Source of the DNA: Ruminococcus albus 7 = DSM 20455
GTDB taxonomy: Bacteria; Bacillota; Clostridia; Oscillospirales; Ruminococcaceae
DNA: 32,000 nt
NCBI RefSeq assembly: GCF_000179635.2
Contig: NC_014833.1
Coordinates: 840,001-872,000, forward strand
Direction: 5' to 3'
Below are positions 3,618-28,921 of this stretch, one piece after another (within the stretch, counting starts at the first letter, position 1; each line of letters begins with the position of its first letter). The translations under genes and the position numbers were made by a program. The notes below the pieces were generated by a model that ran no database searches, was not told where the DNA came from, and was given only the letters and a program-made list of their open reading frames with translations.

Positions 3618-3803
3618 TCCATTACCTCCTGATTTTCTAAACAGATAAAACAAACGACATAAGATATCCGCTTATCCATGAGCATATATGTGCTATCATC
3701 CGGATAAGTATGAAAAATTATGTCGTTCGATAATTATTATATATCTTTTTAAATTGTATGTCAACAGGTTGTTACAAATTACTTTACAGTAACCTGTTAC
3801 ATA

Positions 3804-5141: not shown

Positions 5142-5220
5142 ACGGAAAATCATAAAAAAATCTAAGATACAAAAACGTACCAGCTTATATTGGGCACCTT
5201 TTCTTCCTAGTGCGGATGAA

Positions 5221-6119: not shown

Positions 6120-6140
6120 GCTTATTGGAGGATATCTATA

Positions 6141-6734
6141 ATGTACAAAATAAAACTTATGATAGTGCTTGTTTTATCATGTACGTTTCTTTATTCTTGT
6201 ACATCTGATATTAGCAGTATCCATGATGAGTCAGAAGAACTTAAAATCGCAGAAAGTTCTTTGGCTGAAAGATTCAACCCTCTTACCGATTATAAAAAAT
6301 ATGGAAAACAGATGGATGATTTTGCAGAAGATGTTGCGAATGGCTTTATAAACAAAGACTACGAAATGATAAAACAGAATTTCTGTCAGAGATCCCTTGA
6401 TACTTACGATCTGGATACGGATATAAATAATGTTTTTGAAAAGATCGGTTCTGATATATTATCATATGGAGAAATTAATCATACATTTGGAGGGAAAACA
6501 TTCGGCGGTGGAAATGTCAGCAGATTGACGGGTTCGGTTGAGATCGATGATGTTAAAACTGAAGATAATTCATATGTGATACATATAAACTGTGTAATGA
6601 AGTACGATGATGACAATTCAGAGATTGGTATACAAAATATCAACATAACTCCAAGTGATTGGAAGGCTCGTGAAGATCCGGAGCATGAGTATTTTTGGGA
6701 TATCGGCGAGGTATATGACAGTTGGAATTGGTGA
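6141..6734 (+). CDS. Putative lipoprotein (paralog B)
   Basis: Signal peptide with lipobox-like FLYSC|TS. RBS GGAGGA upstream. Paralog of 5499-6119. Confidence 0.7.
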   Translation: MYKIKLMIVLVLSCTFLYSCTSDISSIHDESEELKIAESSLAERFNPLTDYKKYGKQMDDFAEDVANGFINKDYEMIKQNFCQRSLDTYDLDTDINNVFEKIGSDILSYGEINHTFGGKTFGGGNVSRLTGSVEIDDVKTEDNSYVIHINCVMKYDDDNSEIGIQNINITPSDWKAREDPEHEYFWDIGEVYDSWNW

Positions 6735-6982
6735 TGCTTGATGTTTATAAATGGAGTGAAGGCTTATCAGAAGGAGATTTATTTAATCTGAATTATTATG
6801 GCCTTGCAAGAATATTTAAAGATTATGGTTGCTATGAAACTACCATAACATGGAAAAAGGGATCTAGATACCCCAATTTAAGTGGCTATGGTGTAGTTGA
6901 TTTATCTCAAGTGGATTTTGAAGGCATTTCCGATCCGATTGTGAATAGCACAACTATTTTACTTAATTCCCTAGTGGTCTAG
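6734..6982 (+). CDS. Hypothetical small protein
   Basis: The ATG at 6734 overlaps the TGA of the upstream lipoprotein gene (TGATG). Weakly related to the 5221-5502 product. Confidence 0.45.
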   Translation: MLDVYKWSEGLSEGDLFNLNYYGLARIFKDYGCYETTITWKKGSRYPNLSGYGVVDLSQVDFEGISDPIVNSTTILLNSLVV

Positions 6983-7374
6983 TTGTACTCGTTAACACGC
7001 AGCAGAGTTATGTACTCAAATCATTCACGTTTAATAACAATAGCTGAACGAAGCATAGCTCTTTTTGAGAAACCAGATCTGACGACTTTGATAGTTGATT
7101 CGGGCAACTCAGAAAGATCTGAGCTTTGAAAAAGTAGATCATAAAACCTCGCCTTTTCGATACAGAAGAAACGGTAAAATTACCTTGCATAATTTTGATA
7201 ACAGCAACTCCATTAGGTGTTTTTTCTTGCAATGATATAATTCAAGAATAATTGGCTGTTTTCTATAATTATATAGTGACTCATTGAAAATTATTAGTTC
7301 TGAAACTACGTGATTATATTGGATTTTAAAGCTTTGCTTGGAGCTATACAGATAGCTAGTGGAGGTGTTTATCA

Positions 7375-7914
7375 TTGAAAATCAATAAATTTTTGAATGC
7401 TTCAATATTTATTCTTTTAGGACTTGTTGTTTTTATTGCGTTGTTAAGCAAATATTTTGAACTATGCAGCAATAAAATCACTATGCTTTCTTTATGTGGG
7501 TATATATTATGTTTAGATTTGGTGCTATTAATTGCAAAATATATTATCTTAAGAAAAAAAAGATTTGCTATACTATCAGCTATTGGATGCTTGTTTTTGA
7601 TCTGCTGTGTTTTCATTGTCAATAATGATATAATAAATATTAAAGCAAGTTACAACGTTTATTCAACGGATAAATACTCGGTAATAGTAAGGTTAAATGA
7701 ATCTTTTATTTCTGGAAGATGTGATATATATATAAAAGAAAACAATATCATTATGAAAAAGGTTGGATATCCTTTAGGTGTTCCCCAAAAGTATGATCCT
7801 ATTGCAACAGAAAATTACAAGATAGATGATAATAAGTCTTCGATAATTCTTAAAATAAAATGTGATCCCAACAGAGATGAGTATGAACTTATTGAAATAC
7901 AAAGAGATAATTGA
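7375..7914 (+). CDS. Hypothetical membrane protein (3 predicted N-terminal TM helices)
   Basis: TTG start 7 nt after RBS GGAGGTG. Hydrophobic stretches FILLGLVVFIALL, LCGYILCLDLVLLIA and ILSAIGCLFLICCVFIV. Followed by a strong terminator. Confidence 0.55.
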   Translation: MKINKFLNASIFILLGLVVFIALLSKYFELCSNKITMLSLCGYILCLDLVLLIAKYIILRKKRFAILSAIGCLFLICCVFIVNNDIINIKASYNVYSTDKYSVIVRLNESFISGRCDIYIKENNIIMKKVGYPLGVPQKYDPIATENYKIDDNKSSIILKIKCDPNRDEYELIEIQRDN

Positions 7915-7932
7915 GTGAATAAAAATGAACTG

Positions 7933-7980
7933 AAATAACACTTATTCAAGAAATATTCTTGAATGAGTGTTATTTTGTTT
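7933..7980 (+). terminator. Rho-independent terminator of 7375-7914
   Basis: An ~18-bp stem AAATAACACTTATTCAAG / CTTGAATGAGTGTTATTT (one G-U pair) followed by TTTTGTTTT. Confidence 0.7.
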
Positions 7981-8079
7981 TCCACACCAATGCAGATGTT
8001 TTCCTATGTTTTCTCGTAAGCGTATAACCCCCCGCATCATAAAAGCAAACAGCCGGGCAGATAACACCCGGCTGTAACA

Positions 8080-8619
8080 TCATATTCTGGCTTTGATTTC
8101 TCCATTTCTCTTTGCGTCCATGTATATTTCTTTGAAATCAGCTTTGCTGTTCGGACCGAATATGATCGGCATAACAGATACAAGGCCATCGGAAATGATC
8201 GCATTTTTAAATGGCAGAAGCGCTGCATCAAGCAAAGTTGGCATCGGTGCATTTCTCAGCATTTCCTCCCAACTGCTGACAATGCCGTTTACAAGAAAAA
8301 CAGAATTGTCATCGATCGATATAAATACCGATCCCTTTTTCAAATGTCGCTCAATGATAAATCTGCCGGTGATGCACCCTTTCCAGCTTTTAAGTATCTC
8401 CATGTGTTATTCGGGCAGATCCGATCGCTCAAGATAATCATCAATGATCCATGTCCGTTCCCATAAAAAGTGGGCAACCTCCGCAGCATCCTGTGGGTCG
8501 ATCATTCCTTGCCCGAAATAATCTTCCTCAGGAAGTATATGATATTCTCTGTTCACATAGTCAAGCAGTGGAAAAAACAGTTCATAAAACAGCTTTGCAT
8601 CTTCATTACTAAGTTTCAT
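8080..8619 (-). pseudogene. IS66 passenger ORF of unknown function, read as one ~178-codon frame interrupted by an in-frame TAA (or as two ORFs of 70 and 107 aa)
   Basis: It lies inside the IS66 inverted repeats, downstream of tnpC. Its ATG (8619) overlaps the tnpC stop by 11 nt and follows GGAGGG. 8407-8619 and 8080-8403 are in the same frame, separated only by TAA-CAC (..SDLPE*HMEILKSW..). Confidence 0.45.
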
Positions 8620-9270
8620 TTTCTTCCCTCCATGGTAATAATATCGTTCCCGCAGGCTGTGAAAACAGCTCGGTCAGGTATTTCTCAGCATCAACACCGT
8701 TCGCCTGTGCAGTTGAAATGATCGAATACAGCGTTGCACTTGATCTGGCTCCGTTTGCTGTATTTGAAAACAGCCAATTTTTTCGGCCTAACGCAAACGG
8801 TCTTATTGCGTTTTCGGCTCTGTTGTTGTCGATAGGCACGTCTCCGTTTTCAAGAAACGTGTAAAGATATTTCCGTTCATTCAACGCATATCTTACTGCA
8901 TCTGTCAGCTTGCCCTTACCACTGACCTGAACATTTTCAAGCCACGCAAAAAACTCGTCAAGCAAAGGCTTTACCTTCACAAGGCGCTGTTTATATCTGT
9001 ATTCTGTGGAGCTGTCGGCAAGCAGATTTTCTTCGTGATATATCTTGTTGAAATATTCTACTGCCTTTGCCGCAACAGAAGTGCTGTGCAGCTTTTGGTC
9101 GTTCGGAAGAGCCTGAATAAAACCACGCCTTGCATGAGTCATACAGCCGCATCGCTTAGCACCCTCGACTGCATTGTAGGCATCGTATCCGTCACAGATA
9201 AGATAGCCGATAAATCCTTTCAGGAAATTCGAGGCGTGCTCACCCTTTCGTGTCGGCTGATAATCGAAAA

Positions 9271-10293
9271 CATGGTTATCCCTTTAACACACCACAGATA
9301 ATTTACAATGCTGTCCAAATAAACAGACCTCAAAAACCGAAAAATATTGTATAATAGTGACAGAAACCGAAGGGAGCTGTCGCTATGTCAAAAAGATTTC
9401 CGAAACCTGAGATCACACTTGATGGGATATACTCAAAGTTCGCAGATGAAAGCTTTTGCAAGGATTTTCTGCTTGATATCCGCTTTGAAAAGGGCTTTGC
9501 CTGTCCGTTTTGCGGTGGCTCTGAGTACCGCAGGATAAGGTCACGCCATCAGCTGCGCTGCAAGTTCTGTAAAGCAGATATATCCGCCACAAACGGAACT
9601 TTTATGCACAGAACACATATTCCGCTCAGACTGTGGATAGTCACCGCATTCCTCATTATGAGCAACAAATGCAGTGTTTCTGCTGTTACGCTGATGAGGT
9701 CTTTGGGGGTGACCTACAAGACTGCATGGTACATCCTTCATCGCATCAGAAAAGCTATGAAATGCCGTGAAGAACGCTATTTGCTTGACGGGATCGTTGA
9801 ACTTGATGACACGTATCTCGGTGCTCCGACTCACGGTAAAAAGCGTGGTAGAGGTACTGAAAAAGTCAAAATGATCGTAGCTTTATCAAAGAACTCAGCA
9901 GGAAATCCCGAGTACGTTAAAATGAGCGATGTGCCGAATTTAAAGGGTATAACTGTTGGTAGATTTGCCAGGGATAATATCCGCGCAGGCTCGAAGATCG
10001 AGAGTGATAATGCTCGAAGTTACAAGAAACCGTTGGCACAGAAATACTTCCATGTTTTTGAAACATATGATCCGACAAGCGGTCAGCTGAACTGGATGCA
10101 TAAAGTTATATCAAACTTCAAAGCAATGATCATGGGAACTTACCACGGAAACGAAAAGATCCACACAGCGTTATATGCTGCCGAATACTGCTACAAATTC
10201 AACCGTCGTAAGCTGGGAAACAGTGCGTATTTAAGGCTTTTGGCTGCTTTGGTGCAGTAATCTTACTTGTGGTGTGTTAAGGGGATAACCATA
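9271..10293 (+). mobile_element. IS1595-family insertion sequence, copy 2 (1023 bp), nested in IS66 tnpC
   Basis: Same inverted repeats as copy 1. 8-bp target duplication ATCGAAAA at 9263-9270 and 10294-10301. Confidence 0.85.
9385..10260 (+). CDS. IS1595-family (ISXO2-like) DDE transposase
   Basis: 291 aa. It differs from the copy-1 protein at only two residues (L56Q, A171S) in the supplied translations. Confidence 0.9.
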   Translation: MSKRFPKPEITLDGIYSKFADESFCKDFLLDIRFEKGFACPFCGGSEYRRIRSRHQLRCKFCKADISATNGTFMHRTHIPLRLWIVTAFLIMSNKCSVSAVTLMRSLGVTYKTAWYILHRIRKAMKCREERYLLDGIVELDDTYLGAPTHGKKRGRGTEKVKMIVALSKNSAGNPEYVKMSDVPNLKGITVGRFARDNIRAGSKIESDNARSYKKPLAQKYFHVFETYDPTSGQLNWMHKVISNFKAMIMGTYHGNEKIHTALYAAEYCYKFNRRKLGNSAYLRLLAALVQ

Positions 10294-11243
10294 ATCGAAA
10301 ATGATGATGCTCCTGTCATTCATTTTGCCGTTGCAGTAGACCCACATTCTTGATGTCGTGGTAGGCTTTCGGCCTTCCTCGTGAAGCACCTGAACGGTCG
10401 TTTCATCGGCATGGATCATCTGCCCTGCGATAAGCGTCTCATGCATTTTCTCCACAATCGGCAAACACCATTTTTCGGCAGCAGTGCCTACCCAATTAGA
10501 CATAGTCGCTTTGAGCAGAGGTATGTTTTTGGAATTAAAGTCCTTTTCCTGACGGTGCAGAGGTACTGACTTTGCATATTTTTCGTAGATGATATGAGCC
10601 AGAAGTTCGGGAGAGCAATAGCTTCCCGGGATCATAGCGTGAGGATATGGCGCACGGATGATATGACAAGGTTCGTCCCTTTCTTCGGGCTTTTCTCCGC
10701 ACTCGGGACACTTGTACTTATGTACTATATGCCTGCGGATATGATATTTTGGCGGCGTAAATATAAGTTCATCGTAAGCCTTTTCGGGAGTCAGTTCTTC
10801 CATTTCGGCGCCGCATATTTCGCATACCGGGTTGTCAATTTTGTGATGTTCTTCTTTTACAGGCAGATTGTTCATCCATTCATCGTGAGTGCGTTTTTTC
10901 TTGCGCTTGTGTTCGGGAACAGTAATTGTTTCGGCAGATTTAGCTGCGGATTTTTCTTCATTGTTTCCGAACATGGAAAGCTGAACACCGAACTCCTTTT
11001 CCATAACAACAGATGTCTGCTCTGTTTTTCTTCCGAATATCTGCTTTCTGAACCACGCTAACTGCTGATTGGCAAGTGCTAGTTCTTCCTTGAGAACAGC
11101 GTTTTCATTACGGAGCGATACAATTTCCGATGTCATATTTGGTTCGGACATAAAGCACCCCTCCGTTCGTTATGATACTTTAATGATACCACGAAAAGAG
11201 GGGCTTTTCAAGCACATATTCTGAATATTCGGTAAGTATTGCC

Positions 11244-11600
11244 TTAATACAGCGCCCCCGGCTTTCCCTCACGGATAGCCTTCGGCTGCTCTATTTTCAA
11301 GCCTTCCAGAAGCCAGCGAATTTGCTGAGATGTGAGCATTACTGCTTCGGTCTCACTGCGCGGCCACTGGAATCTTCCGTTGTCAAGGCGCTTGTACAAC
11401 AGCAGAAAACCATCGCCCTCCCACAGCAGACCTTTGATGCGGTCACAACGTCTGCCGCAGAACAAAAACAATGCTTTCGAGAACGGGTCAAGTCGAAGCT
11501 GAGCCTGAACGATAGTCGCAAGTCCGTCTATCCCGCGTCGAAGGTCGGTGTATCCCGTAACAAGATAGACCTGTGCGTCCGCTGCCAGATCATTCAGCAT
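11244..11600 (-). CDS. tnpB: IS66 Orf2 (TnpB) accessory protein
   Basis: 118 aa. YLVTGYTDLRRGIDGLATIV...LFLFCGRRCDRIKGLLWEGDGFLLLYKRLDNGRFQWP is the hallmark IS66 Orf2 sequence. Its start overlaps the tnpA stop. Confidence 0.85.
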   Translation of the reverse strand: MLNDLAADAQVYLVTGYTDLRRGIDGLATIVQAQLRLDPFSKALFLFCGRRCDRIKGLLWEGDGFLLLYKRLDNGRFQWPRSETEAVMLTSQQIRWLLEGLKIEQPKAIREGKPGALY

Positions 11601-11911
11601 AGCTCATGCACCAAAGCGGTCAGAGTGTCCGCAGATATATCTGCCGGAAGAGATATTTGAAGTCCGTTTTTCTCAATGCGGATATTTTCGTTTGAGCAAG
11701 GAACTGATACAGGAACGATGGTCGGAGAATTTTCGATATACTTTTCACGAACTTTTCTTAGGCGGTTGTAATACGTGTTTGGCTTGATCCCTTTTTCTTT
11801 GCACCATTCCCGGATCGTCAGACCGCTTGCCTGCTGTGCTTTGATCTGCGCAGACCATTCCTGAAGCTGCATTTCTTTTTTGATTGTTGTGATGGATGTT
11901 GTTTTGTCCAT
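11594..11911 (-). CDS. tnpA: IS66 Orf1 (TnpA) HTH accessory protein
   Basis: The likely start is ATG at 11911 (MDKTTSITTIKKEMQLQEW) after RBS GGAGG. Contains the helix-turn-helix-like GLTIREWCKEKGIKPNTYYNRLRKV. Confidence 0.75.
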   Translation of the reverse strand: MDKTTSITTIKKEMQLQEWSAQIKAQQASGLTIREWCKEKGIKPNTYYNRLRKVREKYIENSPTIVPVSVPCSNENIRIEKNGLQISLPADISADTLTALVHELC

Positions 11912-12132
11912 ACCTGTTACCTCCTTGTCTAATCGTCTCCAATGAACTCCATGGATCAATTTGGATTATTCAATTTACTTCATGGTGTTCCTTGGAGTTT
12001 ATTATACTTTATTAGACTTCGGTGGGGTAGGTGCTGGGGGTTATACGCTTACGTTTTCTCTATAAAAATCTTTCGTAAGAGTAAAATATTATGCGCCTTT
12101 CCCTCTAGAGGCAAAAATGGTATAATAGAGTC

Positions 12133-12571
12133 CAACGGCAGAGTTTCCGCAGATATATCTGCCGGAAGAGATATTTGAAGTCCGTTTTTCTCAATGCGGA
12201 TATTTTCGTTTGAGCAAGGAACTGATACAGGAACGATGGTCGGAGAATTCTCGATATACTGTTCGCGGACTTTTCTTAAGCGGTTGTAATACGTGTTAGG
12301 CTTGATCCCATTTTCTGCGCACCATTCTCTGACCGTCAGTCCGCTCGCCTGCTGCGCTTCGATCTGTGCAGACCATTCCTGCAGCTGCATTTCTTTTTTG
12401 ATTGTTGTGATGGATGTTGTTTTGTCCATACCTGTTACCTTCTTGTCTAATCGACTCCAATGAACTCCATGGATCAATTTGGATTATTCGATTTACTTCA
12501 TGGTGTTCCTTGGAGTTTATTATACTTTATTAGACATTGGTGAGCTAGGTGCGGAGGGGTTTGATGCTTAC
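12133..12571 (-). mobile_element. Truncated left end of a second, related IS66-family element (inverted repeat plus 5' part of tnpA only)
   Basis: The terminal sequence GTAAGCATCAAACCCC (reverse complement ends at 12571) is related to the IS66 inverted repeat. The tnpA' frame (start about 12429) closely parallels 11594-11911, with several substitutions, up to ...ISLPADISAETL. Homology then stops near 12133. Confidence 0.7.
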
Positions 12572-12607
12572 GGAATTACTTCAAAACTATAACTCATAAT
12601 ATAAAGC

Positions 12608-12641
12608 AACAGCACTGCGCCCAAAATGACGTAGTGCTGTT
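12608..12641 (-). terminator. Hairpin downstream of the decayed HATPase_c_4 gene (probable terminator)
   Basis: A 9-bp stem AACAGCACT / AGTGCTGTT with a 16-nt loop, located just after the original stop at 12667. The T-tract is weak. Confidence 0.4.
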
Positions 12642-12666
12642 ATATTACTAGGTCTTAAATTAGCCG

Positions 12667-13593
12667 TTAATTGTGATTCTTGTCAACAATCCATTTTCCA
12701 TTTCGGGCGCTTCCGTTACGATGTATCCGATTTGCTTCTTTGAGTTGTTTGATCGCATTCTCAGTTTGCTTTTTAGATATATTCAAGAGATCTTACAGTT
12801 CTTTTACTGTGATTTCCGGATTATTAGCAATCGCTGAAAACACACGCTCTATTCTCTCAGCGATTTCATCGCCTTTTTTATCTCCTTTTTCAGAAAGGCA
12901 ATAATTCAAGCTTTTCAGGGTTAAGAAGAAACCGCCGTGTTCGGAAACAAACTCAGGCTGCAGATCATCAGAATACTTATATTGAGCCTTATATTCCTTG
13001 ATGATTTTCTTGATACCACTGCCCCTGCGCTCCATAAAATGAAGCCGTGAAAATATATCTGCTATGATAGGATTACGTCTTTGAGACGGTATCTGCATCA
13101 AATCTCTATCCTGAACATTGATGCCGTCAAACATTCCGCCGGGGGAGTAGATCTCAAGTCTGTCATCGAACATATCAATATGCACTTCACTTCCGACTAC
13201 TAGGTAGTCCCTGTGTATCAGAGCATTCACAATACCTTCCTCAACTGCTCTTTCTAGGTAGTCGGGTAGCTCTATTCTCTGGTCGGGAGCTTTGAACCAT
13301 CCATTATGCGAATTGCGTTTAACAAAAGCTTCTCCTTCTTCAAGGAGTGTTATGAGACTACCGGTATATTCAGCATCATCAAGAGTGTCCTGCAAACCTG
13401 AAGCCTTAGTCAGTCCATTCCAACGTGTACAGAACAGGCGGGACTGGTAAATCGGGCAGTAATCCGCAAGCAAAGCTCCTGCATTAGTTAGTTTATCATC
13501 GCCATCAATAAGACCGAATGAAGCGTAGTCACTGTCCTGAAAATCAAGGTGTGCTCTGCTGTAATATGTGGAGATCAGTTTGGTGAAAGACAT
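12667..13593 (-). pseudogene. Schlafen/AlbA_2-associated HATPase_c_4-type putative regulator (often annotated RecG-like), N-terminally truncated and carrying an in-frame TAA
   Basis: IVNALIHRDYLVVGSEVHIDMFDDRLEIYSPGG...QRRNPIIADIFSRLHFMERRGSGIKKI is typical of HATPase_c_4. The frame continues through TAA at 12793-12795 into a wHTH-like tail DLLNISKKQTENAIKQLKEANRIHRNGSARNGKWIV (stop at 12667). The AlbA_2-type N-terminal domain is missing, replaced at 13594 by IS1182-like sequence. Confidence 0.7.
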
Positions 13594-13703
13594 TTTTGAG
13601 AAGTCATATCCTGATGGCAGACTGTCAAAAGTCTTGCCTGAACCTTTCAGAGCAACGAAAGGATTGTATCACAAAAATGAGAAATTGTCAAGTGCGTCTT
13701 AAC

Positions 13704-14165
13704 ATGAATTATGAGATATGCATCGAAGAAAGCTCACCTGTCAAAGTATTGAGCAATGTTATAGATGAGATCTATCAAAAAGAGGAATACACGATAGTAA
13801 GCAAGTGGAATGGCGCCATACCCGAGGATATTATGATGAAGATACTCATCTACGGCTACATGAACGACTCTTTTTCAAGCCGTAAGATTGAACAGCTCTG
13901 CAAAAGAGATATCCATTTCATGTGGCTTCTCGATGGCTTTGGAGCTCCGGATCACAGCACTATCTCAAGATTTCGACAGAAAATTGGAGAACAGATCGAG
14001 CGTGTGTTTTACGCTGTTGTAAAGTATCTTTTGAATATGAAAGAGATAAGCGGTGAGAACCTGTTCATTGATGGCACCAAGATCGAAGCTAATGCAAACA
14101 GATATACATTCATCTGGAAAAAGGCGGTCTCAAAAAACGAACAGAAAACGATGGCTATATTATAA
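13704..14165 (+). pseudogene. IS1182-family transposase, N-terminal fragment only
   Basis: IPEDIMMKILIYGYMNDSFSSRKIEQLCKRDIHFMWLLDGFGAPDHSTISRFRQ...ENLFIDGTKIEANANRYTFIWKK is the N-terminal (DUF772-like) part of IS1182/IS5-type transposases. The DDE domain is absent and homology ends near 14150. Confidence 0.65.
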
Positions 14166-14504
14166 TAGTGACAAAACCTTAGGGATACTGACGCTCTGCC
14201 AATAATTATTCCAAAGCCCGAAAAGATGATGAAGATACATACGAGCAGAGTTCTGAGATTGAGAAAACACCGATGGTATCTATTTTTATGAGGGGATGGA
14301 TTTTGATAAAATAATATGGTTACCAATATACCATCAAACGAAAAAGATAGGATATGATTACAGCAAACGTACTAAAGGCTTTGCTTTTTTGGGATTGGCG
14401 GAGGAGATGGGTGAATGATTCATATGAATGATTCTATTTCCCGAAATTGAAAAACACTTGATTTTGGGAAATAGATGTGGTATAATAGGCATAGAGGAGT
14501 GTGA

Positions 14505-15704
14505 GTGCTTATGAAACTGATAGAAAGAACCGAATATCTCAATAAGGTCATCAATGTGATCGGTACACCTGATATAAAGGTTATCACCGGTGTTCGACGC
14601 AGCGGCAAGTCTAAGCTGCTTGAAGCCTTTAAGAAGCATATTCTGGATAACTATCCTGATGCCAATATCATACACATCAATTTCAATCTGCCCGAATATG
14701 AGGAATATACAGAATATCGTCCTCTTTATGATCATATCAATTCCCTATACAGAGAAGGTGTAGAAAACTTTGTCCTGATAGATGAAATACAGATGTGCAA
14801 TAATTTTGAGAAAGCAATCAACGGTCTGCACGCTTCGGAGAAGTATGACATATATATTACCGGATCTAATGCGTTTCTGTTAAGTTCTGATCTTGCCACC
14901 CTGTTCACAGGAAGGACTTTCGAGATCAAAGTGTATCCCTTCTCCTTTGCCGAGTATGTAAGGTATTTTGGATATACCGATCTTTATACTGCCTTTGACA
15001 AATATGTTAACGAGGGCGGTATGGCAGGTTCCTATGTCTATAAAGATCAGGAAGCGAAGTACGACTATATCGAGGAAGTGTTCAATACACTTATCGTCCG
15101 TGATATCCGCAAAAAGTATAAGATACGAAATACAGCCCTTATGGACAGACTTGTAGAATTCCTGATGGATAATATATCGAACCTCACATCGGCCAGAACT
15201 ATTGCCGATACCTTTAACAGCCATAAGGATAAGATCAACCATAAGACCGTCAGCTCATATATGCAGTACCTCTGCAATGCATTTGCGTTTTATAAGGTGC
15301 GCAGGTATGACATCAAAGGGAAAAAGTATCTTGCGACGACCGAAAAATACTACCTCAGCGACCACTCCTTCCGCTATGCAAAGCTCGGCACGAAGAATAT
15401 GGACTACGGCAGAGTTCTAGAAAACATCGTAGCTATTGAGTTGCTTCGCCGGGGATACGAAGTGTATGTCGGTGTCCTTTATAAGAAAGAAGTGGACTTT
15501 GTAGCTATAAAACGTGATGAAAAGCTGTATATACAGGTCTCGGATAATATCACCGATGATAAGACATTCCAGCGTGAAGTATCACCGCTGCTGTCTATCA
15601 AGGACGCATATCCGAAAATGCTCATCGCAAGGACCCGGCATGATACTTATCAGTATGAAGGCATCAAGATCGTAGATTTTTCGAACTGGCTAACAAATAT
15701 TTAA
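14505..15704 (+). CDS. AAA+ ATPase of the AAA_14/DUF4143 family
   Basis: Walker A GVRRSGKS, Walker B FVLIDEIQ, and a C-terminal region typical of DUF4143 proteins. GTG at 14505 or ATG at 14511 follows RBS GAGGAG. An extended -10 TGGTATAAT lies at about 14479-14487. Confidence 0.85.
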   Translation: MLMKLIERTEYLNKVINVIGTPDIKVITGVRRSGKSKLLEAFKKHILDNYPDANIIHINFNLPEYEEYTEYRPLYDHINSLYREGVENFVLIDEIQMCNNFEKAINGLHASEKYDIYITGSNAFLLSSDLATLFTGRTFEIKVYPFSFAEYVRYFGYTDLYTAFDKYVNEGGMAGSYVYKDQEAKYDYIEEVFNTLIVRDIRKKYKIRNTALMDRLVEFLMDNISNLTSARTIADTFNSHKDKINHKTVSSYMQYLCNAFAFYKVRRYDIKGKKYLATTEKYYLSDHSFRYAKLGTKNMDYGRVLENIVAIELLRRGYEVYVGVLYKKEVDFVAIKRDEKLYIQVSDNITDDKTFQREVSPLLSIKDAYPKMLIARTRHDTYQYEGIKIVDFSNWLTNI

Positions 15705-15716
15705 GAAGGTAGTAAT

Positions 15717-16799
15717 ATGGATGTTATAGAAGAAATCAGAGCCCTTGCAGAAGAATATGAAGCATGCGGTGGAACTGAACGTAGTGACGGCAGCAAATCC
15801 AGGCTTTTTGATCCGCCTGCCACAATAGAACAGGTACGTGAATTTGAAAAAGAGATGCGCGTCACACTTCCCGAGGTATTCGTGCTTTATCTAACTGAGC
15901 TTGGCAACGGCGGGATAGGACCGAATTACGGCATATATTCGCTGGATAAGATGCGTGAGCGTAATCCTAATGCAGCAGCACGTGCAGAACTGCCTGTAAT
16001 GATCGGCGGGAGACTTCCCGAAGAAGCTTGGAAGACTTTTGCACGTGAAGCTGAGGCAGCAGATGATGAAGAGGATTTTGATAAAATTGAAGAACTTGAG
16101 CAGAGACTGATCGCAGGCGGTATCTTCATCAGTACACCGGGCTGCACGATGTATACTCTGCTGATGTGCAGAGGTGAAGCGGCAGGCGATGTTTGTACCA
16201 TAGATTTTGATTATCTTACATGGTATGATAAGCCCATCGAAGGCGGATACTCGTTTGAAGATTGGATGATCGAGGGAATGCACGATCATATTGCACGCCG
16301 AAAATACGGGATCGATATTGAAATGGTCACGCGATATAACCAAAGAGGTCTCGGAATGGCAGGTGAAAAACTTACGGATTCGCTGATCGATCTGCGAATC
16401 GCTCAACTAACGGAAGAAGGAGATACTGATGCTGTGAATCTTTCCCATGAGCTCCGCGATTTCTATGAGCGAGCATTTGGTAACGGGACGTTTCGAATGT
16501 GGATCGCAGTTCACCGTGGAGAGGTTATAGGCACTGTCGGGCTGACAATGCTTGAAAAGCCGCCATATTCCGCAAATCCAAACGGAAAGATCGGACTGAT
16601 CTCGAGTATGTATGTCAAACCTGAATTCCGAAGACGCGGCATGGCAAAGTGTATGCTTGGATATGTTATGCGCTGGGCAAAGCGAAACGGCATGGGCATT
16701 GTACAGGCAATGGCATCGGAGCAGGGCGTGAAGCTTTACGAATCCTGCGGATTTAGGCACAGTGAACGTTTTTTGCAGTATGATCTGAAAAATATGTGA
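15717..16799 (+). CDS. SMI1/KNR4 (SUKH-1)-like domain fused to a C-terminal GNAT N-acetyltransferase
   Basis: N-terminal ATIEQVREFEKEMRVTLPEVFVLYLTELGNGG matches the SMI1/KNR4 signature. C-terminal IGTVGL...ISSMYVKPEFRRRGMAKCMLGYVMRWAKRNGM...KLYESCGF matches GNAT motif A (RRRGxA). Confidence 0.8.
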   Translation: MDVIEEIRALAEEYEACGGTERSDGSKSRLFDPPATIEQVREFEKEMRVTLPEVFVLYLTELGNGGIGPNYGIYSLDKMRERNPNAAARAELPVMIGGRLPEEAWKTFAREAEAADDEEDFDKIEELEQRLIAGGIFISTPGCTMYTLLMCRGEAAGDVCTIDFDYLTWYDKPIEGGYSFEDWMIEGMHDHIARRKYGIDIEMVTRYNQRGLGMAGEKLTDSLIDLRIAQLTEEGDTDAVNLSHELRDFYERAFGNGTFRMWIAVHRGEVIGTVGLTMLEKPPYSANPNGKIGLISSMYVKPEFRRRGMAKCMLGYVMRWAKRNGMGIVQAMASEQGVKLYESCGFRHSERFLQYDLKNM

Positions 16800-17325: not shown

Positions 17326-17480
17326 ATCTATCGGACATAACAGCGTAATGCTTGTGATGTGAAATGTCCATCCCAATTATAATATGGCTATGACTGTTTC
17401 AGGTATATATGTCGTTTACTGTAAGTTACAGCCGTATCAGATTTAAGTTCTTTTATTTTCAGAAGGAGGGTCAAGAGATA

Positions 17481-20400
17481 ATGCACAAGAAAATGAAACG
17501 TATCGTTGCAGGGCTTGTGGCAATTACCGGTGCTTTATCGGCAACAGCCGCATCTGCACCTATGAGTGTGTTTGCAAAAAATGAACAGATAATTATTCAG
17601 TCTGACTTCAATGCAGGAATGGGTCTTCCCTGGCGCACATTCGAGAATGCACCGGCACGGCAGGACTTCGATATTTCAGACGGCACTTACAATATAACGA
17701 TACAGAATAACGATGGTCCCGAGTCAAGATGGGATCTTCAGTTCCTTTACAAAAATTTCTATATACAAAAAGGTCATACTTACAAGGTACACTGGAAGGT
17801 CAATTCTTCCAATGAGGGTGAGCTGTATACTAGGATCGGTAATTACGGCGGAACTGTTGAAGTTTGGCACAACAACTGCGGCAATGATGATTTCAATCAG
17901 ACGTGGGAATGCGTAAAGATCGCTAAAGGCGACAACACCTTCGATGCTGAGTTTACAGCTAAAGAAGATATGGATCGTGCTTGCTGGATATTTGATTACG
18001 GCGGACAGGGTCAGTATCAGCCGGTAGATTGCTTCCCCAACGGTACGGTCCTCAAATTCGACGATCTGTCTTTGATCGACACTACTTCCGGGGGCTGTAT
18101 AATCGATTTCATTCCTAACGATTGGGGCATTGTAAGACCCGAAAGCAACGTTCGTCTGAATCAGATCGGTTACTATCCTCAGCTGGAAAAGAGGGCTTCT
18201 TATGTTACCGATGCTGATATGCCACTGACTTTTGAGATACGTGACAGATCGGGCAACGTAAAGTACACAGGCAAGACGAAGGTATTCGGCAGCGATCCTG
18301 ATTCGGGTACAGGTAAGGATACAGTTGTTAATTCGGTCACAAGATACAAGGACTCGGGTGCCAACGTACATATCATTGATTTCTCTGATTTCAGAACTGT
18401 GGGCGAGTACACTATATTCGTTAAGGATACAGTCGGCGTAAGCGGCACTCAGGTGATGGGTTCTAAGAAAGTAAACGATACAAGGCTAAGCGGTGATAAG
18501 CTTTTATGGACAAATCCCGTTACTATGAAAACTTATACGATGAACGAGAGCAGTACATTCAGGATAGACAGACAGATCTATGATGATCAGCTGCTGAGGG
18601 ATTCCATGAACTACTTCTATCAGAACCGCTCAGGAGTCCCGATAAAGTCTGAGTACATCACATCAGGTGATAAGTCCGCACTGTCACACCTTAAATATGG
18701 TCATAACCCCGATATGGCTTATGTACAGAGCAAATGGGTAAAGACTTACGAAGATGACTTCTCTGATGGCGAGAAGGATAAGAAGATCGACGTTACAGGC
18801 GGATGGTACGCTGCAAGCGACCACGGTAAGTACGTTGTCGAAGGCGGTTTCTCCGTATGGACACTTCAGAACGCTTATGAGTTCTCCAAGAGGAGCGGCA
18901 ATACTCGCAAGTGGACTGACGGCACTATAGCTGTCCCCGAAAATAAGGATAATGCTCCCGATATACTGGATGAAGCAAGGGTAGAGCTGGAGTGGATGTT
19001 CAAAATGATAAATGAGGACGGCTTTGTATATCATTCAGTGCAGGACTATAAGTGGGCAGATATTCCGATCAGGTTAGGGCCCATATACTGTACGGACCCC
19101 CCAATGGAGTACACTTATCCTTACCGTATCGTCAGACCTCCTACGTATGCAGCCACATTCAACATGATCGCTTGTGCTGCACAGGCTTCACGTCTGTGGA
19201 AGGGCATAGATGATGACTTCGCAAAAGAGTGTCTGCAAAATGCACAGAACAGCTGGAAGGCTATCATGGCTAAGCAGTCCAATTGGAACGTTACAAGTGG
19301 CTATTACTATGATGATCCTTACTTTGCTCCCAGTGAATCCGGCGGAAACAACTTTTTCGGTGACACCTATGTAGTTGACGATGCTTACTGGGCAGCTTGT
19401 GAGCTTTATGCTACAACAGGGGACTCGGCTTACTATGGCTTCTTAAAAAACTATAAAAATTATAATGATCCGTCAGGTCAGGATAAGGCATTCAGCCTGA
19501 CTTCCTGCCTGAGCGGTGGTGAGAACAACGGTTCGTTCGGTTCCTTCAATTGGGGCAATACTGCGGGTCTGGGTACCCTTTCACTCTACCTGAGCGACAA
19601 GACATCTTCTGCTGACAGGAAGACTATTGTCAATTCTATCAAAAATATTGCTGACCAATATATTATTCAGATGAGTAAAGAAGGTATGGGCATACCTTAC
19701 AAGAGTGCGACTGTCGGGGGCTATATCGGTATCGGTGATGGAGATGTGTACACAGGTTATGAATACGGCTCCAACTCATTCGTTATCAACAACGCTATGG
19801 TCCTTGCATATGCTTATGATACTGATAACAGCAAATATATTTATCGGAACGGTGCTGCCGAAGCACTTGATTACCTCTTCGGACGCAACGGTCTGGGCTT
19901 CTCTTATGTATCAGGCTACGGCGATAAGGCAATGAGATCGCCACACCACAGATACTGGGCACAAAGTATTGATCCGTACTTCCCGGCGGCACCCTCAGGT
20001 GTTCTTGCAGGCGGTCCATGCTCAGATCTGTATCATGATAAATATCTTCGTGGTCTCGGCTATAAAAGAGGCACTTTAGCTGATCAGAAGTGCTATGTTG
20101 ACAGTGCAGAGGCATGGTCTGTAAATGATGTTTCCGGCAGCTGGAATGCTCCTCTGGTCTGGATGTCATCATTCATGAACGATCGTTTCGGCGGTCCGAA
20201 ACCAGTCCCCTATCCTACCAACATTAAGGTCGATTACAGTGAGGAGTATCATCAGGTAAGATTTACCTGGAACAAGGTGGAAAACGCTGACAGATACGGC
20301 ATAGCAGTTTATCTGGCAGGCAAGTGGAGAGTTCAGAAACAGGATATCACAGGCACTACCTACACTTCTCCCAAAAATCTGACTCCCGGCGTAACTTATA

Positions 20401-20483
20401 AGGTAGCGATTGCCGCAAGAGTGAACGGCACATGGGATACTGAAAATGCTATCAAACGTGCTTGTACTGTTACTATAAAGTGA
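17481..20483 (+). CDS. Multidomain glycoside hydrolase family 9 protein (signal peptide, CBM4/9-like module, Ig-like CelD_N module, GH9 domain, conserved C-terminal module)
   Basis: ATG at 17481 follows RBS AGGAGGG. Signal peptide MHKKMKRIVAGLVAITGALSATAASA. GH9 signature 1 SYVSGYGDKAMRSPHHR is intact. GGWYAASDHGKY and YVDSAEAWSVNDVSGSWNA are GH9 motifs with substitutions. C-terminus is YHQVRFTWNKVENADRYGIAVYLAGKWRVQ... Confidence 0.9.
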   Translation: MHKKMKRIVAGLVAITGALSATAASAPMSVFAKNEQIIIQSDFNAGMGLPWRTFENAPARQDFDISDGTYNITIQNNDGPESRWDLQFLYKNFYIQKGHTYKVHWKVNSSNEGELYTRIGNYGGTVEVWHNNCGNDDFNQTWECVKIAKGDNTFDAEFTAKEDMDRACWIFDYGGQGQYQPVDCFPNGTVLKFDDLSLIDTTSGGCIIDFIPNDWGIVRPESNVRLNQIGYYPQLEKRASYVTDADMPLTFEIRDRSGNVKYTGKTKVFGSDPDSGTGKDTVVNSVTRYKDSGANVHIIDFSDFRTVGEYTIFVKDTVGVSGTQVMGSKKVNDTRLSGDKLLWTNPVTMKTYTMNESSTFRIDRQIYDDQLLRDSMNYFYQNRSGVPIKSEYITSGDKSALSHLKYGHNPDMAYVQSKWVKTYEDDFSDGEKDKKIDVTGGWYAASDHGKYVVEGGFSVWTLQNAYEFSKRSGNTRKWTDGTIAVPENKDNAPDILDEARVELEWMFKMINEDGFVYHSVQDYKWADIPIRLGPIYCTDPPMEYTYPYRIVRPPTYAATFNMIACAAQASRLWKGIDDDFAKECLQNAQNSWKAIMAKQSNWNVTSGYYYDDPYFAPSESGGNNFFGDTYVVDDAYWAACELYATTGDSAYYGFLKNYKNYNDPSGQDKAFSLTSCLSGGENNGSFGSFNWGNTAGLGTLSLYLSDKTSSADRKTIVNSIKNIADQYIIQMSKEGMGIPYKSATVGGYIGIGDGDVYTGYEYGSNSFVINNAMVLAYAYDTDNSKYIYRNGAAEALDYLFGRNGLGFSYVSGYGDKAMRSPHHRYWAQSIDPYFPAAPSGVLAGGPCSDLYHDKYLRGLGYKRGTLADQKCYVDSAEAWSVNDVSGSWNAPLVWMSSFMNDRFGGPKPVPYPTNIKVDYSEEYHQVRFTWNKVENADRYGIAVYLAGKWRVQKQDITGTTYTSPKNLTPGVTYKVAIAARVNGTWDTENAIKRACTVTIK

Positions 20484-20514
20484 TAGACTTCATTGATCCA
20501 ATTTATTAAAAACA

Positions 20515-23445: not shown

Positions 23446-23456
23446 CTACTCAGTTA

Positions 23457-24512
23457 TCACTCTACAGTAAAAGTCACAGCGTTTTTGATAGCATTTGCAG
23501 TATCCCATTTGCCATTAACTTTGGCTGCGATAGCTACGTTGTAGGTCTTGCCCGGGGTGAGGTTCTTGGGAGTAGTATATTCTGTATCGGTGATACTCGC
23601 CTCCTGAACTCTCCACTTGCCTGCCAGATAAACAGCTACGCCGTAACTGTCAGCACCATTTACAGCGTCCCAAGTAAATCTCATCTGCTTGTACTGGCTG
23701 TCATATTCCATCTGTATGTTCTTAACGGAATCATCTTTATGATGTCCGCAGTCACAGATGCCTCGTGGATACATATTCATAGAAACTTCAACCTGACCAT
23801 CGCTCTCCCAACCTTCAACGCTGAAAGAAATATCGTACAGGTTCCCCACCTTCATACCCAGGTCCTCCCAAGCCTTGAAGTGTTTGGAAACGCTGATAGT
23901 ACCCTTGGTTCTCGTGTTCTGACGTATGCTTATATACTGTGTGAAATACCTGTCGCCTTCGATGGTATAGGAATTTTTGTTTATAGTATATACCTTGTAC
24001 TCACTTCCGTCAATATTAACGGAACCCTTGTACTGTGCAGAAGCAGACTGCGCAGGTGACCAGTTCTTCCAGTCTTCAATGATGTAGTACTCTACCAGAG
24101 GATTCTGCGCCCAGCCGTAGATACCGATCCTGGCGTTACCGGATGAACCTGCATACCAGATGCAGTCGTAGTCACAGTAGAAATTACCATAGTCCTTGTA
24201 AGTCTTGGGATTATTCAGACCCCAGCGAAGACCACGATTAGTAATGAAGTTTCCTCTCGTGTTGTTAGGACCACACTTCCACTGTGCGCGGAAACCACCG
24301 TCATTTTCGTGCAGTGTCATTGTAGAAGAATTATTGGTATCTGCCTGCCAGATCTCGTGGTGGTAGTCGTTGTACCAGCCGACTTCCTGTGTGTGTGACG
24401 GGCTCGTAGTGAGCGTCTTTGCAGCAGATGCAGTAACTGATGTTATAATAGGTGAAACCATCAGCACACCGGCAACAAGAGCGCCTAAAACACGTTTTGA
24501 AACATTTTTCAT
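23457..24512 (-). CDS. Glycoside hydrolase family 11 endo-1,4-beta-xylanase with conserved C-terminal module
   Basis: Signal peptide MKNVSKRVLGALVAGVLMVSPIITSVTASA after RBS GAGGAG. GH11 hallmarks YGWAQNPLVEYYIIEDW (nucleophile Glu) and SVEGWESDG (acid/base Glu). C-terminus is YKQMRFTWDAVNGADSYGVAVYLAGKWRVQ... Confidence 0.92.
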   Translation of the reverse strand: MKNVSKRVLGALVAGVLMVSPIITSVTASAAKTLTTSPSHTQEVGWYNDYHHEIWQADTNNSSTMTLHENDGGFRAQWKCGPNNTRGNFITNRGLRWGLNNPKTYKDYGNFYCDYDCIWYAGSSGNARIGIYGWAQNPLVEYYIIEDWKNWSPAQSASAQYKGSVNIDGSEYKVYTINKNSYTIEGDRYFTQYISIRQNTRTKGTISVSKHFKAWEDLGMKVGNLYDISFSVEGWESDGQVEVSMNMYPRGICDCGHHKDDSVKNIQMEYDSQYKQMRFTWDAVNGADSYGVAVYLAGKWRVQEASITDTEYTTPKNLTPGKTYNVAIAAKVNGKWDTANAIKNAVTFTVE

Positions 24513-25184: not shown

Positions 25185-25886
25185 TCATCTTGTGATATTA
25201 GCAATAGCGGCGGATATAACATCTTCTACGCCGCAGACTTTATCAATTTTATCCTTGTCGGGAGCATTCCTTAGTTCTGCGATACCTGCTCTCCACAAAA
25301 CCAGAGTATTTACATTCAGTGAATCTATCCGCTGTGACATGGCACTGTTGCGGGTGTACATATCAGATATCATCATAATACCTTGTGATGCTATGTTTGC
25401 CGAGATTACAAGGTCGTTTATTTTTTTATCTGCAAGGATCTGGTAGTATTTCCAGTCGGTATCTTTATCTTTGTTTTTCATATGTTCACTCAATGCGGCT
25501 GATGCTTCATTAAGCTCCTGTATGCAGCACTCCAGCACTTGTTTCATGGTGTCAAGCAGCATATTCTCTTTGTATAGTCCTATGTATATTTCCTGAAAGC
25601 TATCGGATATCCTCTGGGCTTCTTTGTCAGCTTTTTCAGCATTGTCAATGAGTCTTGCGTAGCTTATAGTTCCCACAAATCCCTTGTATTTTGCCAGACC
25701 GTTTATCTTTAGCTGGTCTGAAGCAAGGGTCAGGACATTTATAGCTTTGTCAGGCATCCTATCCTGCTGTATTCTGAATAACATATCTGATGTATCAGCT
25801 ATTCTCTTCTGAACATCTCCTGCATATGAGGGGAGAAGTTCAAAGGTCATCATATCGGGGGTATATTTCTTGGTACTATTCAGCAT
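25185..25886 (-). CDS. Short TelA-like (toxic anion resistance/YaaN-KlaB family-like) helical protein; gene 4 of the operon
   Basis: 233 aa, all-helical in character. ADKKINDLVISANIASQGIMMISDMYTRNSAMSQRIDSLNVNTLVLWRAGIAEL parallels the conserved TelA core (..DKR.HDL..S.Q...Q...I.....N.....KI.S......PLWK.Q..), recalled from memory. Its start overlaps the upstream stop (ATGCTGA). The ORF call is solid; the family call is moderate. Confidence 0.65.
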   Translation of the reverse strand: MLNSTKKYTPDMMTFELLPSYAGDVQKRIADTSDMLFRIQQDRMPDKAINVLTLASDQLKINGLAKYKGFVGTISYARLIDNAEKADKEAQRISDSFQEIYIGLYKENMLLDTMKQVLECCIQELNEASAALSEHMKNKDKDTDWKYYQILADKKINDLVISANIASQGIMMISDMYTRNSAMSQRIDSLNVNTLVLWRAGIAELRNAPDKDKIDKVCGVEDVISAAIANITR

Positions 25887-26770
25887 GACCTGTTCACCTT
25901 AGCAAGCTTGATATACTTATCAAGATCTATCTTCTTAAAAAAATTATAACTGTCACAATTTATATCCTGACCAAATATACCCATCTGAACTGGTGATGAA
26001 ATGACTATATCAGTATCGGGTATATTGAAGATATCACGGAACTGGTCTTCCGTAAGAGGCTGACCATAATAGGGATACCAGTTCTTTTCGTGGAATGACA
26101 TGGACTCCATCACCCTCAGCACGACACGTCGTAAAAACATAACCGAGCACATGGGGTAGAAGCATTTTTTCATATTAATAGGTTCCGACGGGCTTTTCAG
26201 CCTTATCTCGGAGTTGAACACCTCGTCATTGCTGTAGCATGAGCTGAACACTTTAAGGTCAACACCTATGCCGTATTCTTCAAGCAGTTTTATCAGACTG
26301 AGAGTCAGCGCGCCGCGGTTGGTGACTGCCTGCTCTAAGGTGTGAATTGAATATGCCAGATTGAACCATATAGTAACGAATTTTTTCTCTCTTGCTCTTG
26401 TGAGCCTGTACATTGTCTTCGGAGTACCTGCCACGTACGCGGGAATATTTGGGTGAGAGCCTGCCATTGCCTTTTCCTGCCTGCGTCTGTAAGTTCTTAT
26501 CGGCATAGTCTTTTCAAATTCCTTCAGCATTTCCAGTGTAATGTCATAATTACCCGTATATCCGCCGATAAGATAATCTACAGCATTATCAAAGGTATCC
26601 TCGGGAAAATCCGGACGTCTGATGATACTGTGCTGTTTGAGAAATATTTTGTCGTTTACTTTAGGTTTGCTGAGTATATACATCTGCATATCACTCAGAC
26701 TGTTGAACGCCGCATTGTATACAGTCATTTTTTTGTATTGGTATACTTTGAGGTTCATAAATTCTCTCAT
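25880..26770 (-). CDS. Unknown protein, partner immediately downstream of the AAA_5 NTPase; gene 3 of the operon
   Basis: 296 aa. ATGA start/stop overlap with the NTPase gene. No motif I can assign. The strand-helix pattern KKFVTIWFNLAYSIH...RGALTLSLIKLLEEYGIGVDLKVF could be a degenerate vWA/Rossmann-like core without a DxSxS MIDAS. Confidence 0.75.
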   Translation of the reverse strand: MREFMNLKVYQYKKMTVYNAAFNSLSDMQMYILSKPKVNDKIFLKQHSIIRRPDFPEDTFDNAVDYLIGGYTGNYDITLEMLKEFEKTMPIRTYRRRQEKAMAGSHPNIPAYVAGTPKTMYRLTRAREKKFVTIWFNLAYSIHTLEQAVTNRGALTLSLIKLLEEYGIGVDLKVFSSCYSNDEVFNSEIRLKSPSEPINMKKCFYPMCSVMFLRRVVLRVMESMSFHEKNWYPYYGQPLTEDQFRDIFNIPDTDIVISSPVQMGIFGQDINCDSYNFFKKIDLDKYIKLAKVNRSC

Positions 26771-28911: not shown

Positions 28912-28921
28912 ATCCTTCCAC

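Follow-up and report, generated by a model that had tools for sequence, protein, structure and literature searches.

The SUKH superfamily is a versatile protein-binding scaffold, whose known bacterial role is toxin immunity and which in eukaryotes was recruited to serve as an adaptor in ubiquitination and polyglutamylation (PMC3113570). In bacteria, proteins of the YobK type are small, stand alone and are encoded next to polymorphic toxin genes; in eukaryotes, the SUKH domains of the FBXO3 and PGs2 systems have been proposed to recruit the substrate (PMC3113570). The founding paper on the superfamily makes no mention of a SUKH domain joined to a GNAT acetyltransferase (PMC3113570). Here we analyzed a stretch of 32,000 nucleotides from Ruminococcus albus 7 = DSM 20455 (contig NC_014833.1, positions 840,001 to 872,000; hereafter, the window), in which a single gene at positions 15717-16799 encodes exactly such a fusion. 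Searches of the open-access literature combining SUKH or KNR4 with GNAT or acetyltransferase retrieved no description of it, in agreement with a sequence-only reading of the window made earlier, which had taken the architecture to be uncharacterized. Both domains are well known and the protein is already in databases under a generic GNAT name; it is the combination that is undescribed. The domain anatomy is secure. As to function, we infer, tentatively, that the protein is a cytoplasmic GNAT N-acetyltransferase whose SUKH domain would dock a protein partner, either to have it acetylated or to control the enzyme.

Comparison with the closest described systems places each half of the protein. 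YobK (PDB 2PRV) belongs to the same superfamily and fold as the N-terminal half (Foldseek probability 1.00, TM-score 0.64 normalized to the target) and shares with it the N-terminal LPxxF/YxxaLxxxGxGG motif; unlike the YobK type, however, the protein described here is fused to an enzyme, carries an acidic helical insert of about 30 amino acids (aa), has no toxin neighbor and is strongly conserved. The best structural match to the N-terminal domain is the Knr4/Smi1 core (5J1B, 6QBQ, 8AJ2; TM-score ~0.5 over ~215 columns), which carries insertions as well, but Knr4, a eukaryotic hub protein, has disordered arms and lacks an enzymatic domain, and identity is just 9-13%. In FBXO3 (SCF ubiquitin ligase, 9KBF) and in the tubulin polyglutamylase subunit PGs2, SUKH is likewise coupled to protein modification, although the enzyme is there a separate subunit or complex that carries out ubiquitination or glutamylation, whereas the GNAT lies in the same bacterial polypeptide; the parallel is therefore best taken as a possible analogy. 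For the C-terminal half, the closest solved relative is 3MGD, a predicted Clostridium acetobutylicum acetyltransferase with acetyl-CoA; unlike the fusion, 3MGD and the small stand-alone GNATs of the P0049 type described below are single-domain, substrate-unassigned proteins without SUKH and without the loop at aa 205-218. The resemblance to the aminoglycoside acetyltransferases AAC(6') and AAC(3) is limited to the GNAT fold and weak local similarity to their hidden Markov models (HMMs), whose membership cut-offs are not reached. Moreover, Pat/YfiQ and the mycobacterial cyclic nucleotide (cNMP)-binding Pat are GNATs in which a fused non-catalytic domain determines specificity or activity, a logic that the SUKH-GNAT fusion would share. 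The accessory domain is related to nucleoside diphosphate (NDP)-forming acyl-CoA synthetases in Pat/YfiQ and binds cNMP in mycobacterial Pat, unlike the SUKH domain of the fusion, and scans of Pfam and NCBIfam gave no sequence relationship of the fusion to the Pat families. The features of the gene are as follows (dN/dS, ratio of nonsynonymous to synonymous substitution rates).

15717..16799, + strand: SUKH-GNAT fusion open reading frame (open reading frame list; 14 full-length homologues; dN/dS)
15717..16307, + strand: SUKH (SMI1/KNR4, SUKH-1) domain, aa 1-197 (PF09346, AlphaFold2 model, Foldseek, LPEVFVLYLTELGNGG motif)
15816-16268, + strand: Pfam envelope of PF09346, aa 34-184 (Pfam)
16014..16112, + strand: acidic two-helix insert in the SUKH domain, ~aa 100-132 (models, indel-rich alignment columns)
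16308..16787, + strand: GNAT acetyltransferase domain, aa 198-357 (Pfam, 3MGD, Foldseek, full-length model)
16629..16646, + strand: acetyl-CoA pyrophosphate-binding motif A, RRRGMA, aa 305-310 (translation, conservation, 3MGD alignment)

The open reading frame is complete, with an ATG start and 360 codons followed by a stop codon on the + strand, as first read. Its N-terminal half matches SMI1_KNR4 (PF09346, SUKH-1) at aa 34-184 with 35.1 bits (E = 2.3e-8), against a curated gathering cut-off of 25.4 bits, covering positions 1-123 of the 125 in the profile, and the precomputed Pfam annotation of most homologues of the fusion names the same family. A sequence-profile search of the Protein Data Bank (PDB) with the SUKH clade found nothing beyond a marginal YobK match (E = 0.19), so that a fold search was needed to confirm the SUKH fold. 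Because the full-length AlphaFold2 model, built with 14 homologues (predicted local distance difference test, pLDDT, 79.6; predicted TM-score, pTM, 0.79), matched only GNATs in the PDB, with 3MGD first, the N-terminal domain was modeled alone. The resulting model of aa 1-210, obtained with 27 stand-alone relatives, reached a pLDDT of 87.9, and its best 21 Foldseek matches in the PDB all belong to the SUKH superfamily (yeast Knr4, Bacteroides BF1740, 3D5P, Bacillus subtilis YobK, 2PRV, Syd, 3FFV, FBXO3, 9KBF, and 2ICG), unrelated folds appearing only at E > 2. Membership of the N-terminal half in the SUKH superfamily is, in both score and fold, far past chance, which bears out the assignment of aa 1 to about 200 to SUKH in the sequence-only reading.

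The sequence LPEVFVLYLTELGNGG, at aa 51-66, follows the helix-loop motif typical of the SUKH N-terminus (LPxxaxxaaxxxNGG), is largely invariant and aligns with LPNSYKWFLEKYGAGG of YobK. Residues F43, E44, LP51-52, Y58, T60, E61, G63, G66 and W105 are invariant in fused and stand-alone proteins alike, and so are T140-M145 within STPGCTM, L149-G153 within LLMCRG, D163, F180 and W183. This shared invariance implies that the SUKH half keeps a conserved binding function, as predicted from the alignment. The acidic insert consists of two helices in both models (aa 102-117 and 121-132), and its length varies across homologues. The N-terminus of the protein is itself acidic, and no signal-peptide-like hydrophobic stretch was seen on reading it.

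The C-terminal half matches Acetyltransf_1 at aa 243-346 with 51.8 bits against a cut-off of 20.7 (E = 1.2e-13) and Acetyltransf_7 with 50.3 bits against 27, with Acetyltransf_10 and Acetyltransf_9 likewise past threshold; together, these models span aa ~243-350. Thus, the HMM check places both domains past curated Pfam cut-offs, and structure prediction with AlphaFold2 and Foldseek supports both folds; the scores of the GNAT half, too, are far past chance. The motif A pattern of GNATs (Q/R-x-x-G-x-G/A) is present as R305-R-R-G-M-A310, the RRRGMA stretch already singled out in the sequence-only reading; R305 is invariant among the 14 homologues, and R306, G308 and A310 are at least 90% conserved. 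The motif aligns with the matching stretch of acetyl-CoA-bound 3MGD, which is the best PDB sequence match to this half (E = 2.7e-16, aa 221-357) and a close fold match (TM-score 0.83 normalized to the target). In addition, E280, Y341 and G345 are invariant or nearly so in the homologue alignment, and the order of GNAT elements, from beta1 through helices and strands to beta7, is visible in the full-length model. E280, Y341 and motif A, together with purifying selection, argue for an enzyme that is probably active.

As to what kind of GNAT this is, the NCBIfam models for AAC(6'), AAC(3) and AAC(2') all scored under their cut-offs, the best being AAC_6p_group_E with 26.9 against 140 bits. Weak sub-threshold matches were to AAC(6')/AAC(3) and ArsN families, and since all of them lie far under the curated AAC cut-offs (140-350 bits), the fusion is not an AAC family member. 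The top fold matches of the full-length model include histone, aminoglycoside and sugar acetyltransferases; TacT ranks 20th among many generic GNAT matches, and, apart from the common fold, no specific resemblance of the fused GNAT to GNAT toxins was detected. Toxins of the TacT/AtaT class are small, stand-alone proteins with an adjacent antitoxin gene. A toxin-antitoxin pair of this class was considered and rejected, as the gene upstream encodes a 399-aa ATPase and no sizeable open reading frame is found in the 600 bp downstream.

In the full-length model, the last SUKH helix (aa 180-197) runs directly into strand beta1 of the GNAT (aa 199-204), which is followed by the conserved loop at aa 205-218. 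Since the helix leads straight into beta1, the model leaves no flexible linker between the domains, and the SUKH domain would be rigidly attached to the GNAT.

The architecture recurs well beyond the window. Among 5.8 billion proteins, a word-indexed search detected 14 full-length homologues with 98-43% identity, from Ruminococcus albus and rumen Oscillospiraceae, one of them an R. albus isolate protein annotated just as "GNAT family N-acetyltransferase"; it also detected about 27 SUKH proteins of ~210 aa that stand alone and share 40-48% identity with the N-terminal half. In an exhaustive HMMER profile search of 1.84 billion representatives at 50% identity, three clusters had the full-length architecture, and all remaining strong matches covered one half only. 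When one genome per GTDB species was scanned, R. albus KH2T6 proved to have two copies of the fusion (87% and 71% identity), on separate contigs, and the fusion was also present in two metagenome-assembled genomes of rumen Oscillospiraceae. Plasmids and phages gave no full-length match, the GNAT half alone being matched there, and IMG/VR contained no relatives of the SUKH clade. The family is small, rumen-restricted, conserved and uncharacterized. Crude neighbor-joining trees of the SUKH and GNAT halves are congruent, with the fusions essentially monophyletic in each, and this congruence and near-monophyly point to a single ancestral fusion event followed by co-divergence, as judged from the sequences; independent SUKH-GNAT fusions from other subfamilies may also exist. 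Against the orthologues in the homologous loci L010 and L002, the whole gene has a dN/dS of 0.11-0.15 (Nei-Gojobori), and against L010 the two halves have values of 0.13 (SUKH) and 0.09 (GNAT). Diversifying selection of the kind typical of immunity genes was thus rejected for both halves.

That an error of assembly, a frameshift or gene calling had joined two separate genes, as the sequence-only reading had itself considered, has practically no probability. No evidence in its favor was found, while an R. albus isolate (3.8-Mb contig) and metagenome assemblies made independently from several sources have the same uninterrupted architecture, at 43-98% identity; moreover, both halves yield congruent trees, and the SUKH helix leads directly into strand beta1 of the GNAT. 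Being conserved, constrained and invariant at its key residues, the fusion is a functional gene.

The two halves also have relatives of their own, and named members of both stand-alone families, found in gut and rumen metagenome data, belong to Ruminococcus. The closest relatives of the GNAT half are stand-alone enzymes of ~150 aa, typified by P0049, whose contig of just 686 bp leaves no context readable. Their signature in metagenomic data (EKPPY...G+IGLLSSMY...RRRGIA...ASxxGVKLY) is common to the fusion. Members of this stand-alone subfamily also occur joined to NUDIX, glyoxalase/VOC, DUF5071 and a second GNAT (P0052, P0055, P0115, P0072, P0102), and a literature search on DUF5071 returned nothing; what look like Cas1-GNAT and MutY-GNAT fusions may be artefacts of metagenome gene calling. 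On the SUKH side, a second recurrent fusion was observed in about 15 representative clusters (P0087-P0186) of 420-454 aa, with SUKH at the N-terminus followed by an all-alpha region of ~240 aa, which has a HEAT_2 Pfam match in one and none in the rest.

None of six distinct stand-alone SUKH relatives lies in a polymorphic-toxin context. P0024 (L018, 5001-6281) sits between ispG and polC, followed 105 bp on by a RimJ/RimL-type GNAT (Acetyltransf_3), which is of a different subfamily from the fused GNAT, and by a DUF2695 gene. P0020 (L006, 5159-8396; also L007 and L008) is the third gene of an operon near proS, after two kinases of the aminoglycoside phosphotransferase (APH) family separated by gaps of ~11 bp, and is itself followed by an unannotated 161-aa open reading frame; this APH-APH-SUKH arrangement hints that the SUKH clade may partner modifying enzymes of the kinase or acetyltransferase type. 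Other stand-alone relatives lie between YpsA and thiamine pyrophosphokinase, upstream of a holin-endolysin pair, near an integrase, and near ATC_hydrolase, GNAT and TetR genes (one each). A GNAT of the fused subfamily was found near a stand-alone SUKH gene in none of seven distinct contexts. The other GNAT and APH neighbors were considered as neighborhood support from the separate halves, and the signal was judged too weak to use.

Around the fusion itself, the window carries GH9, Cel124-dockerin, GH11 and LRR_5 genes, as in a cellulolytic, Ruminococcus-like genome, and its scanned open reading frames contain no toxin domains; likewise, no toxin gene stands beside the fusion in seven other distinct loci (L001-L004, L010-L013). 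The fusion is single-copy at every locus, with no tandem array of immunity paralogues, and its neighbors are not conserved: LRR_5-dockerin and DUF285 genes in L001 and L011, a GNAT, a metallo-beta-lactamase-fold protein and a CCA-adding enzyme in L012, proteins without a Pfam match in L013, and RsmH-like methyltransferase and MacB-type ABC genes in L003 and L004. The survey across genomes thus shows a fusion that is conserved but rare, among changing neighbors. The elements immediately upstream in the window are the following.

14458..14486, + strand: sigma-70-like promoter match upstream of the ATPase gene, TTGATT-17-TATAAT with extended TG (consensus scan, pattern match only)
14505..15704, + strand: AAA_14 and DUF4143 ATPase, 399 aa, upstream neighbor of the fusion (Pfam; PADLOC PDC-S01)
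15703..15709, + strand: Shine-Dalgarno-like AAGAAGG, 7 nt before the ATG of the fusion, within and overlapping the 12-bp gap (sequence read)

The ATPase gene ends with its stop codon at 15704 and the ATG of the fusion lies at 15717, which leaves the 12-bp gap that had been read from the sequence. The true start of the ATPase is probably the ATG at 14511 rather than the GTG at 14505, and in L010 the ATPase open reading frame begins at the ATG equivalent to 14511. The ATPase matches PADLOC PDC-S01 (E = 3.3e-150), a single-gene phage-defense candidate in that collection; the fusion protein itself matched none of the PADLOC families. In L010 and L002 the ATPase is 96% identical and has the same 12-bp spacing to the fusion, and the synonymous divergence (dS) is ~0.6 for both genes; its dN/dS of 0.03 indicates purifying selection much stronger than that on the fusion. 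The ATPase adjoins the fusion only in these two closest relatives and is absent from five more distant distinct fusion loci (L001/L011, L012, L013, L003/L004), so that an ATPase-fusion operon conserved as a general feature was rejected. No terminator-like sites were found between 14100 and 17450, the promoter-like match is a possible start of a two-gene transcript, and the two genes are probably co-transcribed in the lineage of the window. Since the ATPase matches a single-gene candidate and the adjacency is limited to L010 and L002, we take the pairing as co-residence rather than as a conserved two-gene system: it probably reflects shared residence in a variable, defense-island-like region of one lineage. 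In the 86%-identical metagenomic locus L002, the pair adjoins (2445-9172) genes for a DdmD-like helicase-nuclease of 1138 aa, a DdmE-like protein of 686 aa and a WYL-domain regulator, surroundings that look like a defense island. The window has none of these DdmD/DdmE-like and WYL genes; there, the next gene is one for a GH9 cellulase.

Coming to the mechanism, we propose that an ancestral fusion joined the stand-alone ~210-aa SUKH family to the stand-alone ~150-aa GNAT family, and that, in rumen Ruminococcus and Oscillospiraceae, the halves would since have evolved together, with purifying selection acting on both. The SUKH domain would dock a specific, fairly conserved protein or peptide partner and bring it to the GNAT active site next to it, where the partner would be N-acetylated, or, alternatively, the docked partner may gate the enzyme; the protein could then be an in-cis bacterial counterpart of the eukaryotic SUKH substrate adaptors of FBXO3 ubiquitination and PGs2 polyglutamylation. 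We favor this docking model because of the rigid junction, the equal constraint on the two halves and the retained SUKH signature, and the coupling of target binding to acetylation, suggested by the sequence-only reading, is indeed the most plausible mechanism, albeit without a toxin as the favored target. Several points weigh against it. The geometry between the domains comes from an AlphaFold model built from 14 sequences only, the stand-alone SUKH and GNAT relatives are never neighbors in the seven contexts and so lend no neighborhood support, and the sequence and fold of a GNAT cannot tell protein from small-molecule acceptors. Moreover, stand-alone GNAT relatives work without SUKH, and some are fused to NUDIX or glyoxalase/VOC. 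Such domains typically handle small molecules, and these fusions hint at a small-molecule acceptor. The main rival is accordingly an acetyltransferase of small molecules (antibiotic, polyamine, xenobiotic or metabolite), detoxifying or housekeeping, with the SUKH domain as a structural, oligomerization or regulatory appendage. We consider it doubtful, though a serious possibility: it would fit the ~150-aa stand-alone GNATs and their fusions to NUDIX or glyoxalase/bleomycin-resistance-type domains, the weak sub-threshold AAC(6')/AAC(3) and ArsN matches, and the stand-alone SUKH genes that, in three of the six distinct contexts, neighbor APH-type kinases (L006) or other GNATs (L018, L015). However, the NCBIfam resistance models stay far under cut-off (e.g., 26.9 against 140 bits), the neighboring GNATs are not of the fused subfamily, and, given how frequent GNAT and APH genes are in Firmicutes, this neighborhood signal may be chance; furthermore, SUKH domains are known protein binders (PMC3113570), and the SUKH half is constrained as strongly as the GNAT half.

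The sequence-only reading had placed the domain among immunity types, and the fusion could accordingly be an enzymatic immunity protein or neutralizer, in which the incoming protein captured by SUKH would be a polymorphic toxin, a bacteriocin or a phage protein, and acetylation by the GNAT would inactivate this target or its product. This is unlikely. It is true that bacterial SUKH-1 proteins such as YobK, whose fold the fusion matches, confer toxin immunity (PMC3113570), that one R. albus genome has two paralogues, that the window copy and L002 lie in variable, defense-island-like DNA (insertion sequence (IS) elements, PDC-S01, DdmD/DdmE-like and WYL genes), and that two stand-alone SUKH relatives are in mobile or prophage-like contexts. 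However, no LXG, RHS, WXG100, nuclease or deaminase toxin gene is adjacent in the window or the seven other distinct fusion loci, nor is a secreted-toxin gene adjacent to the six stand-alone relatives, several of which lie amid housekeeping genes (ispG and polC, proS, thiamine pyrophosphokinase). Paralogues do not form a tandem array, and a dN/dS of ~0.1 with many invariant, surface-type residues is unlike the rapid diversification of arms-race immunity genes; the fusion, in addition, has neither a PADLOC match nor IMG/VR relatives. Hence, neither the immunity framing nor a classical toxin-linked immunity gene is supported by the context. Catalytic immunity proper, in which SUKH would capture an incoming toxin, bacteriocin or phage protein for the rigidly held GNAT to acetylate and irreversibly inactivate, possibly in cooperation with PDC-S01 in the lineage of the window, is decidedly unlikely; if true, SUKH immunity proteins, otherwise purely stoichiometric, would have a version armed with an enzyme. 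Very unlikely, finally, is a two-gene anti-phage module with the PDC-S01 ATPase, with the GNAT acting as effector and SUKH as sensor or built-in inhibitor. The 12-bp same-strand gap, a promoter-like site only upstream of the ATPase with no terminator between the genes, the pair kept with equal dS in L010 and L002, the strong PDC-S01 match and the DdmDE-like genes adjoining the pair in L002 would be consistent with such a module, but the catalogue lists PDC-S01 as a single-gene candidate, the five more distant loci lack the ATPase, the fusion matches nothing in PADLOC, and its GNAT has no detectable likeness to GNAT toxins other than the common fold.

Other features of the window were also recorded. 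The 5 kb upstream of the ATPase are IS debris, comprising an IS1595 element inside an IS66 transposase gene, a DUF772 transposase fragment (13596-14165) and a truncated HATPase_c_4 open reading frame (12793-13593, - strand) with weak PADLOC similarity to pAgo-associated proteins. Two IS1595-family copies are present (850-1845 and the 8609-11151 region), with transposase genes at 970-1845 and 9385-10260 that are 97% identical over the 300 nt compared; the second copy splits the IS66 transposase gene into an N-terminal part (10231-11151) and a C-terminal part (8609-9142), both on the - strand. Within the debris at 11594-14165, a 300-nt duplication (11621-11920 and 12139-12438; 94%) extends over two IS66-accessory-like open reading frames. 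A module of ~240 nt, 74-79% identical, occurs at 3802-4040, 20245-20485 and 23455-23695; two of these sites are the 3' ends of the GH9 gene (17409-20483, + strand) and the GH11 gene (23457-24512, - strand), the third being at ~3802-4040, and the module probably encodes an fn3-like C-terminal domain that cell-surface or cellulosome-related proteins have in common. The window further contains tandem DUF5104 genes (5499-6119 and 6141-6734) and a minus-strand cluster at 25185-30037 with a TelA-like gene (25185-25886), a gene for a 714-aa AAA_5 ATPase (26767-28911) and unannotated open reading frames.

Altogether, the fusion has an unsurprising genomic context and no demonstrable new mechanism, and, because the family is small and rumen-restricted, we regard the protein as an interesting uncharacterized enzyme rather than as a new biological principle. 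For annotation, "SMI1/KNR4" should not be equated with "immunity protein", since toxin loci are not where this SUKH clade, fused or stand-alone, is found, and its conservation is strong. Should SUKH indeed bring a protein substrate to the GNAT, the fusion would be the first case in bacteria of a SUKH substrate adaptor for a modifying enzyme, a role so far inferred only for the eukaryotic FBXO3 and PGs2, and the fusion would then offer a compact system in which to study how SUKH domains recognize their partners.

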